Assembly (NCBI RefSeq): GCF_050920415.1
Contig: NZ_CP169309.1
From: Escherichia coli
Lineage (GTDB): Bacteria > Pseudomonadota > Gammaproteobacteria > Enterobacterales > Enterobacteriaceae
DNA length: 64,000 bases
Reading direction: 5' to 3' (one strand)
Positions 3,254 to 10,808 of this stretch are shown in pieces; position 1 is the stretch's first letter; each line of letters starts with the position of its first letter. A program made the position numbers and the translations under genes. A model generated the notes under the pieces. The model was given only the letters and a program-made list of their open reading frames with translations. It made no database searches and had not been told where the DNA came from.

Positions 3254-3758
3254 ACCACATTCCTGGAAAAACGTATTGGGTAATGCAATGTTGTATAATA
3301 TTATTTTATAGTTTCAATGAATTAATTCTCTCTCCCCCATCATATAAATCACAAAAAAACAGCATTAAAAATATAATTACGGCAAATATATTTTCATTAC
3401 CTATATTAACTTTTCTCTTTATAAGAGGTTTTTAATGATAATTAACCAATTTATTCTGAGTACTATGCCTCACTCCCGGTATTAGCACTGGATAGCACTT
3501 AATTGGATTCTGTCAGGCTGGGACGGGGGCAACAAGTGCATACAACGACCTGTCCTTAACGCGTAATTATTAATTTCTACAGCGTATTATCACATTATTT
3601 AAACCTGCCCAACCTCACCAAATACATTCATAAAATGCATAATTATAATAAATCATAAAAATCCATTCACCGAAGATATTTTTCTTTAAAGAGTGTGGCA
3701 TTTATAATAAGTTTTGGTGAGAAAATTCACCACCATTAATTTTAATAAGGATATTTCT

Positions 3759-4325
3759 ATGTTAAATAAAAGTGCTATTGCTGCGGCATTAGTCATGTTC
3801 ACCAGTTCAGCCTTCGCGCTTGATGGCGGTCAATTAGATTTCTCAGGTTTGGTCAGTGACAATACCTGCGCCCTGCACGTCAACGGTGGCGCGCAGGACG
3901 GTCAAATTACTCTGCAAACCGCTACAACCGCTGAAGTTAATGGCGCAGGTGTCGTAAAGACTGCCGACGTTGGTGCAAAACCGGAAGCCTTTTCTATTGC
4001 GATAGATTGCTCGGGCGATCCAAAAAATAACGCCAGTCTGAGCATGGGTTCTGTGTTCTTCAGTAACAGCCAGGGCACTCTGAACAACGATCTCTCTATC
4101 AGCCAGGCGGCAACCGGGGTCGCTATTGCCATTCACTACCTTACCAATGCCACCACCTACCAACAGGTGAAAGTTAACGACAGCACCGATGTTAAAAACC
4201 TTGTGTTTACCAACGGCAAAGCGGTTTACAACTTTAAAGCGTCGTATGTTAAACAGGCAGCAACAGTTGACGCAACGGCAGGTTATGTCAAAACCAACGC
4301 CGCTTATACAGTGACTTATCAGTAA
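3759..4325 (+). CDS. yadN: Fimbrial major subunit-like protein (chaperone-usher pilin)
   Basis: ORF 3714..4325; ATG 3759 preceded by RBS taagga; N-terminal signal peptide MLNKSAIAAALVMFTSSAFA; pilin-like C-terminal beta-strand (YTVTYQ). Confidence 0.88.
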   Translation: MLNKSAIAAALVMFTSSAFALDGGQLDFSGLVSDNTCALHVNGGAQDGQITLQTATTAEVNGAGVVKTADVGAKPEAFSIAIDCSGDPKNNASLSMGSVFFSNSQGTLNNDLSISQAATGVAIAIHYLTNATTYQQVKVNDSTDVKNLVFTNGKAVYNFKASYVKQAATVDATAGYVKTNAAYTVTYQ

Positions 4326-4381
4326 ATCTCTGCATCACCCGACAGCCCACTGCTGTCGGGTAACTCAATAAGGATAGTGTT

Positions 4382-5125
4382 ATGACCAGGATGTGTCAGT
4401 TTGTTGTTTCCGCTGTTTTCATCGCATCGACAGCCGTTTTCAGCCTCACCGCGCAAGCAGATATCGTGCTTTCCGGTACGCGCATTATTTACAATGCAGA
4501 CCAGAAAGACGTTACTTTGCGCATGGAAAACAAAGGCGCCCGCCCATTATTAGTCCAGACCTGGATTGATACCGGCAGCGAGAATGCCGACCCCAGCACA
4601 TTGAAAGTGCCTTTTACCGTGACGCCACCGGTTTCCCGCGTTGATGGTAAAAAAGGCCAAACGGTTAAAATTGCGTGGAACGCCAGCCAGACCCTTCCAG
4701 CCGATCGCGAAAGCATTTATTGGTTCAATGCGCTGGAAGTTCCCCCCAAGATGAGCGATGCCGATGCCAAAGGAAAAAACATTCTGCAACTGGCTTTCCG
4801 CACCCGTATCAAGCTGTTCTATCGCCCAACCGGTCTGGCGGGTAACCCGGCTGATGCACCAAAACAGTTAACCTGGCGTCTCCAGTCTTCAGCCGGAAAA
4901 GTGGTGCTGCAGGCGACAAACCCTACGCCTTATCACGTCTCATTCAGCAGCATTACCCTTGGCTCAGGCGGTAATAAATATACCGTGGAGACCAGTATGG
5001 TCGCACCCATGAGCAGTGCGGAAATGGTGGTAAAAGGCGCTCCCCGTTCTGTGTCTGGTGCAACAGTTGATTACTCCGCCATTAATGATTTTGGCGGTGG
5101 CATTGACGGCCAAGTCAAACTTTGA
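4382..5125 (+). CDS. yadV: Periplasmic fimbrial chaperone (PapD-like)
   Basis: ORF 247 aa with signal peptide and PapD-family chaperone layout; sits between pilin and usher genes. Confidence 0.88.
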   Translation: MTRMCQFVVSAVFIASTAVFSLTAQADIVLSGTRIIYNADQKDVTLRMENKGARPLLVQTWIDTGSENADPSTLKVPFTVTPPVSRVDGKKGQTVKIAWNASQTLPADRESIYWFNALEVPPKMSDADAKGKNILQLAFRTRIKLFYRPTGLAGNPADAPKQLTWRLQSSAGKVVLQATNPTPYHVSFSSITLGSGGNKYTVETSMVAPMSSAEMVVKGAPRSVSGATVDYSAINDFGGGIDGQVKL

Positions 5126-5157
5126 TGCCCACAAATTATATCGGCTGAGATCGTACA

Positions 5158-8364: not shown

Positions 8365-8961
8365 ATGAATTATCAAAATATAACCTTTGTATTGCTGCTG
8401 TGCTTTGGATATATCGCCATCGGCCACGCCGCCAGTAGCTCTATGGACGTTACGGTACGCGCTAAGGTCATTGCCAGTACCTGCACGGCGGAATTGCGCA
8501 ATGCGCAGGATCAGCAAGCCACCACCATCGCAATTGGCGATGTCTATCTCAACGAGCTTTCCGCTAAATCGAAATACCAGAACTTCAGTCTGGTGTTTTC
8601 AAACTGCGAAGGGTTAGCAAAGGATCAGGCCAAAGTTGTGCTTTCGGCACAGACGGGCTGCGATGGCGCTTCCAGTTCCGGTGGCGGATATCGTAATGAA
8701 CTGACGACGGCGGACGATGATGCGGCAACCGGTGTCGCAGTTGAAGTGTGGACGACGAATCAGCCAGAAGGTCAGGGCAGCATTCAGCTTAATTGTAAAA
8801 CCAAACCGACCAGCATTGTCGATTTAACCGCGGCAACAGGCTCGAATATTGTCCACTGGCCGCTCAGTGCCCGAATTGTCATTGCATCGGATAATACCAT
8901 CGCGGATGTTCGTGCAGGTCAATTCTCCACCAACGCTATATTTTTTGTAACCTATGAGTAG
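8365..8961 (+). CDS. yadL: Fimbrial subunit-like protein
   Basis: ORF 8359..8961 (alternative start); ATG at 8365 with upstream aggt; signal peptide; C-terminus FFVTYE. Confidence 0.82.
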   Translation: MNYQNITFVLLLCFGYIAIGHAASSSMDVTVRAKVIASTCTAELRNAQDQQATTIAIGDVYLNELSAKSKYQNFSLVFSNCEGLAKDQAKVVLSAQTGCDGASSSGGGYRNELTTADDDAATGVAVEVWTTNQPEGQGSIQLNCKTKPTSIVDLTAATGSNIVHWPLSARIVIASDNTIADVRAGQFSTNAIFFVTYE

Positions 8962-9534
8962 ATGATGATGAAAACATTTATCTACATATTCGCACTGTGG
9001 TTTTCATACAATGCCATTGCCGCCAGCACCAATATTAATATGACCGCCAATATTGTCAGCACCAGCTGTAAAGTCACGTTCGACAATAGTGGGAGTATTG
9101 ATTTAGGAACGGTGGATTACAACTACCTGAACAATAATACTTCCGTCGATCGCGTTTATACCGGTGGTCACTCGTTCTACATTTCTGTCAGCGACTGTGC
9201 GCAGGTTGCAGGAAAGAACCCTGCTCGTCTTACAGTGAGTTTTACGCCCGTCGCTGGTACGCTCGGTGCAACAAACCAACAGGTTTTCGCTAATCAGACG
9301 ACTAATGGCGCTAAAAATGTCGGCATCGTGATCTTATCCACTCAGGATGCGCAAAATATTTTCAATGTACTGGATACCCACGGTCAACCGCAGAGCATTT
9401 ATCCTGTGAGTGCCGATCAGTTAGCTAATGCTACCTATCATTTTCATGCGAGGATGCAGAAGGTCGACCTGACGCAAGCCGCGACAGCCGGCTTAGTACG
9501 AGCCAGTGTGTTTGTGGGTGTTTATTATGAGTAA
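8962..9534 (+). CDS. yadK: Fimbrial subunit-like protein
   Basis: ORF 190 aa; signal peptide; pilin-like C-terminus VFVGVYYE. Confidence 0.85.
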   Translation: MMMKTFIYIFALWFSYNAIAASTNINMTANIVSTSCKVTFDNSGSIDLGTVDYNYLNNNTSVDRVYTGGHSFYISVSDCAQVAGKNPARLTVSFTPVAGTLGATNQQVFANQTTNGAKNVGIVILSTQDAQNIFNVLDTHGQPQSIYPVSADQLANATYHFHARMQKVDLTQAATAGLVRASVFVGVYYE

Positions 9535-10775
9535 TGTTTTTCGTTTTCAAGGATGATGAAATGAACCGTTTACAGCTAACAACGTGGGGCAACATTTTAT
9601 TGCTATTATTGCCCCTATATTCAGGCTGCCTCCAGGCCGCATACACACTTGTTGTCGGAGGTAAAGATACCACTGGTGATCGAGTTCAAAACAATGGTCC
9701 GGCTAGTGATGGTTATTCCACTACCATCTATACTACGGGTAGCAGCCAGGTCGTGATTGGGCGTGCCACAGCACTGCAATACAGCAATGTTAAAATCAAG
9801 CTAGATCTGGATACCGCTGCCATTCCTAATACAGGGGTTATTTACTGCTCCCCTGACGGTACGGGCGGACCGATTTCACTGGAGAACCATTTTATTAAAA
9901 GTCCGTACATCTACGATGGTCACCAACTTTTTAAAACCAATATTCAAGGGCTGTATTTTACCGCACGCATGTATGGTCTTTGGTCGTATGGTGTAGAGTC
10001 ATCAGACAACTTTTATATCGGTGATACAAATCCACAACCACTGGATCTTCGCACATCAACGTGCCCGGGCAGTTCTGGATGGTATCTGACCCTTGGTGGC
10101 TTAGTCTCTCAAATGGACATCGACTTATATAACGACGCAACCTTTGACCCCGATGCCAGCGGCAGCATTGCCCTGCTGAGTGACGCACCCTATCACTACT
10201 CTCTGAAAAATCAGTCCCCTGGCGGAAATCTCAAATCCCGTACAATTTTTCAGACGTTTAATATGGGAAATGTCACGTTAACCTCTCCTACCTGTTTGTC
10301 GGCGGTCCTCACTGGCAGCAGTGTCAGTCAGGGTGACACGGTAGGTTTGGGCGAATACAGTCCAAAAGAAGTTATTGACGGTGCGAATGGTGTGCCTTTT
10401 TCGATCACACTAAAAGGATGTTACCGGGTAACAGACATCGAAGTAAAATTGACGACAGGAGCTCCTGCGCTATCAGCGTCGCTATTGGGCAACTCGCTTA
10501 CAGCAAATGCGGCAAGCGGTGTAGGTGTAGAGATCAAAGGTAAGCCCAACTCACATTATCCAGAAGTGACGCTGATGCCCAACGACGCCTCCTCAATCTA
10601 TAAAGCGTATGGCGATAACCCGGATAACTCAAACGGTATTATTGGCAGTAACTCTTCGGGTTCTCCTGCCGACCAAACGCTGAATTTCACCGCGACTCTT
10701 AAGCAGGATGACAATCAGCAGATCCGGGCCGGAGATTTTAAAGCGACTGGCATCTTCTCAATCACCTACCCCTGA
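9534..10775 (+). CDS. yadC: Fimbrial tip adhesin-like protein (two-domain pilin)
   Basis: ORF 413 aa; start overlaps yadK stop (TAATG); longer than structural pilins, C-terminal pilin-like strand (GIFSITYP). Confidence 0.85.
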   Translation: MFFVFKDDEMNRLQLTTWGNILLLLLPLYSGCLQAAYTLVVGGKDTTGDRVQNNGPASDGYSTTIYTTGSSQVVIGRATALQYSNVKIKLDLDTAAIPNTGVIYCSPDGTGGPISLENHFIKSPYIYDGHQLFKTNIQGLYFTARMYGLWSYGVESSDNFYIGDTNPQPLDLRTSTCPGSSGWYLTLGGLVSQMDIDLYNDATFDPDASGSIALLSDAPYHYSLKNQSPGGNLKSRTIFQTFNMGNVTLTSPTCLSAVLTGSSVSQGDTVGLGEYSPKEVIDGANGVPFSITLKGCYRVTDIEVKLTTGAPALSASLLGNSLTANAASGVGVEIKGKPNSHYPEVTLMPNDASSIYKAYGDNPDNSNGIIGSNSSGSPADQTLNFTATLKQDDNQQIRAGDFKATGIFSITYP

Positions 10776-10784
10776 GCCCCGCTA

Positions 10785-10808
10785 CCGGCAGGTCCCCCTG
10801 CCGGTTTT
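10785..10808 (+). terminator. Rho-independent terminator closing the yad fimbrial operon
   Basis: ccggcagg-tccc-cctgccgg hairpin followed by tttt, immediately after yadC stop. Confidence 0.75.

Follow-up and report, generated by a model that had tools for sequence, protein, structure and literature searches.

A rare, deeply divergent type of Yad/Sta chaperone-usher operon at the folK–panB site of Escherichia coli

The window analysed here, a 64,000-nt stretch of Escherichia coli DNA (contig NZ_CP169309.1), carries between folK and panB seven intact open reading frames (ORFs), all on the plus strand, that together form a chaperone-usher fimbrial operon. With a probability of roughly 0.85, we read this operon as a complete and selectively maintained fimbria of the Yad/Sta family, of a rare and deeply divergent type that we label W-type. 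The annotation itself is not new, the operon being an uncharacterised type of a known family. A first-pass annotation made from the letters had already placed a seven-gene chaperone-usher operon here, and ORFs, Pfam and NCBIfam matches and synteny all confirm it; pilin (PF00419), chaperone (PapD) and usher (PapC/Usher) domains were all matched, so that observation stands.

The divergence is evident from comparison with K-12, which carries yadN-yadV-htrE-yadMLKC at the same site. The best K-12 match of each operon protein is its positional counterpart, and the two operons are thus homologous and collinear. Nevertheless, protein identity to K-12 reaches only 53% for N, 53% for V, 59% for the usher, 36% for M, 36% for L, 38% for K and 39% for C, beside flanking proteins that are 87–99.6% identical (GluQ 96%, PcnB 99.6%, PanB 98.5%, PanC 97% and FolK 87%). 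Nucleotide identity behaves likewise, at 52–63% in the operon against 87–93% in the flanks, and synonymous sites are at or near saturation. The K-12 gene names applied to the operon in the first-pass annotation hold for locus, gene order and one-to-one homology; with proteins only 36–59% identical, they do not carry over as a statement of close relationship.

The operon is also rare. Searching 5426 complete E. coli genomes with the whole operon (megablast) finds the W-type in 23, of which 2 match at ≥99%, 12 at about 92% over query bases 1–6313 only, and 9 at about 76%; megablast against the same genomes finds K-12 htrE in 4000 and O157 Sakai htrE in 613. Comparison with RMDEC465, E. albertii and E. 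coli LHM10-1 gives dN/dS ratios of 0.05–0.23 in every operon gene whose sites are not saturated, which argues that the genes are maintained and functional.

Organisation and family membership of the operon

Genes run in the order dksA, gluQ, pcnB, folK (ending at 3253), the seven fimbrial genes, panB (starting at 10894), panC, rpnC and panD. This is exactly the neighbourhood of yadN–yadC in MG1655, with the window antiparallel to the usual MG1655 numbering. Coding coordinates are those of the Prokaryotic Genome Annotation Pipeline (PGAP) in the record of E. coli MFDS1022581 (NZ_CP169399.1), which is 100% identical to window 1–13800, converted to window positions. A YadN/StaA-like major pilin (3759–4325, 188 aa) is followed by a PapD-type periplasmic chaperone (V; 4391–5125, 244 aa), an outer-membrane usher of the HtrE/StaC family (5158–7764, 868 aa), three minor pilins that resemble YadM/StaD (7781–8353, 190 aa), YadL/StaE (8365–8961, 198 aa) and YadK (8962–9534, 190 aa), and a YadC-like two-domain tip adhesin (9561–10775, 404 aa). 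From N to C, the intergenic gaps are 65, 32, 16, 11, 0 and 26 nt.

Three start codons merit comment. The pilin ATG at 3759 has a TAAGGA Shine–Dalgarno sequence 7 nt upstream and is kept in all relatives; the upstream region is therefore 505 bp long, and the 460 bp given earlier arose because a TTG at 3714 was taken as the start. A TAATG overlap between yadK and yadC had likewise been described. That sequence is present at 9532–9536, but its ATG (9534) is probably not the real start of the adhesin gene: it lacks a Shine–Dalgarno sequence and would prefix MFFVFKDDE to the signal peptide, whereas the ATG at 9561 is preceded by AAGGA at a distance of 7 nt, and annotation places the start there both in this record and in all relatives. 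Finally, the chaperone may start at an in-frame ATG at 4382, 9 nt 5′ of the PGAP start, which has the better Shine–Dalgarno sequence (AAGGA, 7-nt spacing) and would yield the 247-aa form annotated in relatives.

Domain models place the proteins in the expected families. The chaperone matches PapD_N (6.5e-43) and PapD_C (3.4e-19), and the usher matches PapC_N (1.1e-40), Usher (6.7e-161) and PapC_C (1.5e-20). PF00419 (Fimbrial) is matched by the major pilin (2.4e-12), by the M-like pilin (8.8e-13) and by one of the L- and K-like pilins. Among the NCBIfam models, PRK09926 scores the chaperone at 368 bits (cut-off 285), PRK09828, the HtrE-family usher, scores 1362 bits (cut-off 830; next family 549), and PRK15262 scores the K-like pilin at 190 bits (cut-off 132). 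Best models for the others are StaA for N (139 bits, cut-off 230), StaD for M (112 bits, cut-off 228), YadL (YadL/StaE) for L (161 bits, cut-off 206) and the fimbrial adhesin model PRK09723 for the adhesin (274 bits, cut-off 382), each score lying below its cut-off. All four pilins are nonetheless recognised by NCBIfam fimbrial models. By NCBIfam scores and best nucleotide match the usher groups with HtrE/StaC over other E. coli ushers, its best nucleotide match in typical E. coli genomes being the annotated htrE. RefSeq labels the operon genes only as ‘fimbrial protein’, ‘chaperone’ or ‘usher’.

Sequence features of chaperone-usher systems are found throughout. All seven proteins have signal-peptide-like N termini, and the pilins carry a conserved Cys pair and a C-terminal strand with a penultimate Tyr (...TYQ/TYE/YYE). 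In the major pilin these features are a signal peptide, the pair Cys37/Cys84 and the ending ...TVTYQ; the L-like pilin ends in ...FVTYE. The chaperone holds the motifs GTRIIY and RIKLFYRP, which, by analogy with PapD and FimC, we take to contain the Arg8 and Lys112 residues of the subunit-anchoring cleft. Following the paradigm of type 1 and P pili, the subunits would be exported by Sec, captured by the chaperone through donor-strand complementation and polymerised at the usher by donor-strand exchange, with the adhesin assembled first, then the K-, L- and M-like adaptors and last the N-like rod subunit.

Whether such an operon is called Yad depends on the definition. Wurpel et al. 2013 classed fimbriae by usher clade and locus, and Yad and Sta have a common locus and usher clade (PMC3559732). 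Ellison et al. 2026 scored Yad carriage by asking for an HtrE that matches the EC958 protein with 80% identity or more across 80% or more of its length, with K-12 a member of the Yad-positive group (PMC13245861). The usher here, compared with K-12 HtrE, is 59% identical, so the second scheme would score this genome Yad-negative, whereas on the sequence comparisons above the first makes the operon Yad/Sta. Surveys that use an identity threshold, such as 80% for HtrE, consequently count W-type genomes as lacking Yad.

Comparison with named systems gives a similar picture of shared architecture and distant sequence. With the Yad operons of K-12 and uropathogenic E. coli (UPEC), the W-type shares the folK–panB site, the seven-gene order, similar gene sizes, an AT-rich upstream region and a two-domain tip adhesin; it differs from K-12 Yad in its proteins (36–59% identical), its lectin domain (30%), an unrelated upstream region and terminator, and a GC content of 49% rather than 42%. 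The ‘yad’ operon of O157:H7 Sakai (ECs_0139–0145) has the same site and architecture and is a third type, with protein identities of about 24–61% to the divergent operon and about 23–61% to K-12; its adhesin has 369 aa and is 24% identical to the one here. The Sakai genes are annotated yadN–yadC, at 6329–13293 of the stretch that we compared (L012). Phylogroup E was scored 0% Yad-positive (PMC13245861), probably because the Sakai genes are of this third type. As for Sta (staABCDEFG of Salmonella enterica serovar Typhi), compared by NCBIfam model only, N and M score best against the StaA and StaD models and lie far below their cut-offs. Type 1 (Fim) and P (Pap) pili share the Pfam families of chaperone, usher and pilins as well as a FimH/LpfD-like two-domain adhesin. 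Unlike them, the operon here has no invertible switch, recombinases or Dam sites, and it has three adaptor pilins and a receptor-binding domain to which no solved structure is close.

The tip adhesin and the upstream region

The adhesin comprises a signal peptide (residues 1–26), a receptor-binding domain (about 27–240) and a pilin domain (about 241–404). PF00419 is confined to residues 255–403, and the N-terminal domain has no Pfam match. Two Cys pairs, Cys96/168 and Cys245/287, are invariant in 22 homologues. An AlphaFold2 model built on a 22-sequence alignment predicts a beta-rich N-terminal domain (about 31–240) with mean pLDDT values of 69–95 in ten-residue blocks. The top Foldseek matches of the model in the Protein Data Bank (PDB) are the two-domain fimbrial tip adhesins LpfD, CupB6 and CfaE and the lectin domains of UcaD, Abp1D, UclD, F17-G and MrkD. 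A PDB search by sequence gave a weak match of the pilin domain to FimF (E 0.009) and no match to the receptor-binding domain. The predicted model thus supports a two-domain architecture; binding specificity is not inferable from the fold.

On the paradigm of type 1 and P pili, the N-terminal domain would bind a host or environmental receptor. Compared with K-12 YadC, it is 30% identical and the pilin domain 48% identical, and the lectin domain is the most variable part of the adhesin in all comparisons, as it is in canonical YadC (PMC13245861). Canonical Yad is reported to bind D-xylose-containing glycans and annexin A2, and to respond to H-NS, ArcA, temperature and human serum (PMC13245861, PMC6921372). 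Because the lectin domain is only 30% identical, the receptor here is probably not the one that K-12 YadC binds, and receptor, serology and regulation are not transferable from K-12/UPEC Yad. The receptor and inducing conditions, listed as open questions in the first-pass annotation, are thus partly answered by the literature for canonical Yad.

Upstream of the operon, the region between folK and the pilin gene (3254–3758) is presumed to be regulatory. As first described, it is very AT-rich and contains homopolymer tracts: a GC content of 30.7%, where the window as a whole has 51.6%, makes it the most AT-rich segment of its length in the 64 kb (within the lowest 0.08% of 505-bp windows), and it holds A/T runs of 5 nt or longer in six places and of 4 nt or longer in thirteen. 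An Rfam scan of 3150–3850 at E ≤ 1 returned nothing. Small ORFs in the region (28–56 aa over 3254–3758, including a 50-aa ORF with an ATG start at 3283–3435) were set aside as unsupported, the region being unconserved. Most of it, 3254–3735, matches only RMDEC465-type genomes (97%) and is not shared with the upstream regions of K-12, O157, LHM10-1 or Pseudocitrobacter.

Conservation beyond the closest relatives is confined to 3627–3758, where a comparison of six loci with the W-type operon brings out three promoter-proximal elements on the plus strand. A conserved CATTCACC box (3666–3673) lies about 30 nt upstream of a −10-like element, and the ATTCAC(C) within it is kept in the present operon, RMDEC465, E. 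albertii, LHM10-1, E. coli GF4-3 and P. faecalis; this conservation suggests that the box has a function. The −10-like TATAAT (3703–3708) is part of a conserved TTTATAAT (3701–3708) that is identical in six of six loci, and has no good −35 element. Between it and the ribosome-binding site is an inverted repeat, GGTGA-N5/6-TCACC (3716–3732), whose arms are invariant and whose loop is variable over the six loci, with one flanking pair changed from T-A to A-T. The hairpin predicted for the repeat in RNA form is weak, with −6 to −10 kcal/mol and z between −0.8 and −2.5, and the repeat could serve as a 5′ mRNA stem-loop or as a protein operator. All three elements are absent from the K-12 and O157 upstream regions.

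Transcription would probably start within these promoter-proximal 100 bp or so (CATTCACC, TTTATAAT and GGTGA-N6-TCACC), and the transcript would span all seven genes as far as a terminator-like hairpin followed by UUUU (10784–10808, plus strand), 3′ of the adhesin gene. This hairpin had been called a strong terminator. The G+C-rich hairpin is indeed present (10784–10805; 9-bp stem, −17.5 kcal/mol, z −3.1); only four U follow it, and for that reason a consensus scan for promoters and terminators did not call it. That scan is used descriptively only, because the number of sites that it reports is not above shuffled expectation. The stem is kept with different loops in LHM10-1, GF4-3 and RMDEC465, and K-12 and O157 have other hairpins.

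In K-12, CFT073 and EC958, yad is repressed by H-NS (PMC13245861). Given the base composition here and this canonical analogue, H-NS silencing of the divergent operon is plausible: H-NS acting on the 31%-GC upstream region would probably keep expression low in the laboratory, and environmental or host cues would relieve the silencing, as for canonical yad (PMC13245861).

Distribution, mosaicism and transfer between genera

Relatives of the operon occur within and outside E. coli. A search with the adhesin finds homologues in E. albertii (63%), P. faecalis (60%), Escherichia sp. 94.0001 (59%), [Enterobacter] lignolyticus (58%) and Citrobacter species (41–43%). The E. albertii operons, found through protein search and contig look-up, have the same seven genes with the same gene lengths between folK and panB, and their usher is 87% identical to the one here and 60% to that of K-12. 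P. faecalis carries the W-type at the same site (usher 81% identical), as do E. coli LHM10-1 and GF4-3 (usher 83%), two strains with the same PcnB as K-12. These nearest relatives share with the present operon an usher of 81–87% identity, gene lengths (868/198/190 aa), the promoter-proximal elements and the terminator stem, and differ in the M-like pilin (57–60%), the adhesin (60–76%) and the distal upstream region. They are annotated merely as ‘fimbrial protein’, ‘chaperone’ or ‘usher’, and the literature searched held no experimental study of them. Some related loci appear damaged: E. albertii GCA_051877015.1 (L015, 5560–9859) has no annotated usher gene and only 154 aa left of its K-like protein, and in E. 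coli C600 (L003, 10488–11727) yadC is annotated as frameshifted.

The operon is itself a mosaic. Identity to RMDEC465 is 90–98%, but falls to 48–67% across a module from about 9000 to 10700 (plus strand) that covers the 3′ half of the yadK-like gene and the adhesin gene; across the same module, identity to LHM10-1 rises to 66–86%. Synonymous sites tell the same story, with K and C saturated against RMDEC465 and dS values of 0.13–0.33 in the other operon genes. This switch indicates that exchange of the adhesin module took place separately from the remainder of the operon. The operon as a whole is older than, or foreign to, its flanks, since its dS is at least 1.07 against E. albertii (K and C being saturated) and about 0.8 or more against LHM10-1, compared with 0.3–0.7 for the flanking genes, or 0.3–0.6 where these are set against E. 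albertii.

Divergence from typical E. coli seems to extend into the housekeeping flanks. Nucleotide identity is about 93% for dksA–folK (window 1–3253) and about 90–91% for panB–rpnC (10809–13800), and FolK is 87–91% identical in amino acids to that of other E. coli; the next 25 kb (14001–39000), by contrast, are 96.5% identical. The latter figure led us to reject the idea that the flanks mark a genome from a non-E. coli ‘cryptic clade’, and indicates that the host is a divergent lineage at the level of E. coli, in which the additional divergence is restricted to the flanks of the operon. Across 14001–39000, N96 (98.8%) and not MFDS1022581 is the top genome among the matches listed, which may reflect the ranking or a limit on query pieces.

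A much closer relative came from another genus. In a scan of species-representative genomes with the usher, which needs exact peptide words and returned two loci, the type strain of Pseudocitrobacter vendiensis shows 100% protein identity. Window 3744–11905 (plus strand), which takes in the operon, panB and the first 200 bp or so of panC, differs from P. vendiensis CPO20170097T (NZ_CALSBS010000004.1, 5579–13750) at only 30 of 8162 bp (99.6% identity), and the operon proteins are 98–100% identical. Outside this tract, identity to P. vendiensis is 73–83% over dksA–folK and 76–82% on the other side, where the drop comes at 11906 within panC; on the left, the junction falls in conserved sequence near the ribosome-binding site. 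In a single draft assembly, this looks like a very recent transfer between genera by homologous recombination. Within the tract, panB and the start of panC are 88–91% identical in nucleotides to K-12 and about 79% to P. faecalis, and this Escherichia-like character suggests that the transfer ran from Escherichia to Pseudocitrobacter. The tract would mean that adhesin operons of the core genome can cross genera by homologous recombination without a mobile element, which bears on the spread of colonisation traits in Enterobacteriaceae.

P. vendiensis also retains, upstream of the imported operon (L013, 4841–5601), a native N-like pilin gene whose product has 72% amino-acid identity to the pilin of the window. 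Behind this gene come a strong hairpin (GTTGCACGGCAC...GTGCCGTGCAAC) and a module that resembles the promoter-proximal one. With a native and an imported N-like gene, this genome has two major-pilin genes in tandem.

By sequence comparison, then, the folK–panB site holds at least three operon types with 22–61% protein identity, so that the one name ‘yad’ covers operons as unlike as different fimbriae, and whole operons as well as the adhesin module appear to be exchanged, across genera too, by homologous recombination that uses the conserved flanks as anchors. Allelic variation of YadC and two subtypes in phylogroup B2 are known (PMC13245861); in a literature that we covered incompletely, we found neither the W-type nor the Pseudocitrobacter tract described, nor any account of three operon types at the locus. 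A broader proposal, which we hold tentatively and at somewhat under even odds, is that the site is a long-lived, multi-type polymorphism across species and genera, in which adhesin modules are swapped under selection on receptor binding or antigenicity, 8-kb cassettes are exchanged, and the W-type would have a receptor of its own and its own control through GGTGA-N6-TCACC. Were it true, scoring such genomes as ‘Yad-negative’ would miss functional, differently targeted fimbriae.

Competing explanations and other features of the window

Several findings weigh against a complete and maintained Yad/Sta fimbria under the control outlined above. One minor pilin (L or K) has no PF00419 match in Pfam at E ≤ 0.001, and N, M, L and C, more than half of the seven proteins, score below every curated NCBIfam equivalog cut-off. 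The AlphaFold2 model of the adhesin is mediocre overall (mean pLDDT 69), with a poor pilin domain, as expected because the donor strand is absent, and its Foldseek TM-scores are low (0.27–0.56). As to expression, the consensus scan chose distal promoters at 3348–3377 and 3365–3392, about 380 bp upstream, and not TATAAT; the case for H-NS is drawn from the composition of this DNA, which has no detectable similarity to the K-12 upstream region; and the U-tract of the distal hairpin is short. The operon body, moreover, has a GC content of 49% against 42% in K-12 and 47% in O157, so silencing may be weaker than in K-12 or organised differently.

The same observations could be accommodated by other explanations. 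An ordinary allele of K-12/UPEC yadN-yadV-htrE-yadMLKC would explain the shared site, gene order and similar gene sizes, and the usher-clade and locus criterion of Wurpel et al. 2013 would give it the label ‘Yad’ (PMC3559732). We find this very improbable in view of the gap in identity between operon and flanks, the saturated synonymous sites, the unrelated upstream region and terminator and the 23 carriers against 4000 for K-12 htrE; as a claim of allelic identity it is refuted, and it survives only as a statement about family and locus. We give little credence, too, to the idea that the cluster is cryptic, non-functional and in decay, a genomic fossil that only chance has preserved. Poor expression of canonical yad in the laboratory (PMC13245861, PMC3559732) and the damage in some relatives (the usher and K-like genes of one E. 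albertii, yadC of C600) would fit such a fossil, but here all seven ORFs are intact with their signal peptides and structural motifs, dN/dS is low in every measurable gene, and the proteins are almost unchanged in the copy recently transferred to another genus. Import is a more serious contender, though still unlikely: a foreign Yad/Sta-like operon, for example from Pseudocitrobacter, could have entered a few Escherichia lineages and replaced yad through recombination in the flanks. The W-type in Pseudocitrobacter, [Enterobacter] lignolyticus and Citrobacter relatives, an operon dS far above that of the flanks, a divergence from typical E. coli that is greater in the flanks than in the 25 kb beyond them, and a GC content above that of K-12 yad all point that way. 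Against it, E. albertii carries the W-type at the same site with an 87% identical usher, which fits long residence in Escherichia; the sole recent transfer seen runs from Escherichia to Pseudocitrobacter; and the operon contains no mobile-element genes, the nearest, rpnC, being a conserved neighbour.

Many chaperone-usher operons are phase variable, and expression here might accordingly depend on a fim-like invertible promoter or a pap-like Dam/Lrp switch and not on simple H-NS silencing, a proposal to which a long upstream region with several short imperfect repeats lends some colour. We assign it a negligible probability. No recombinase gene lies in or adjoining the operon, no well-matched inverted repeats surround a promoter-sized segment, and phase variation is reportedly not a property of canonical Yad (PMC13245861). 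The invertible switch was rejected after a repeat search of 3200–3800 found only the short, weak repeats typical of AT-rich DNA (the best inverted pair spans 23 nt at 78%), and the Pap-like switch because the upstream region has no GATC, none occurring between 3172 and 4017. Counted over all 64 kb there are 270 GATC sites, where shuffled sequences predict 232 ± 12. Set against these alternatives, a complete and selectively maintained Yad/Sta fimbria of a divergent type remains our preferred reading.

Elsewhere in the window, the second most AT-rich stretch (39678–40342, GC about 0.34) lies near aceE, between a minus-strand ORF of 265 aa and a plus-strand ORF of 457 aa. From its position, it is presumably the divergent regulatory region of pdhR and aroP. 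Rfam places the small RNA tp2 (RF02030) at 38811–38924, and gathering-level matches on the minus strand to naRNA4 (RF02564) at 50198–50275, STnc40 (RF02057) at 50782–50851 and PssrA (RF02797) at 56498–56587.

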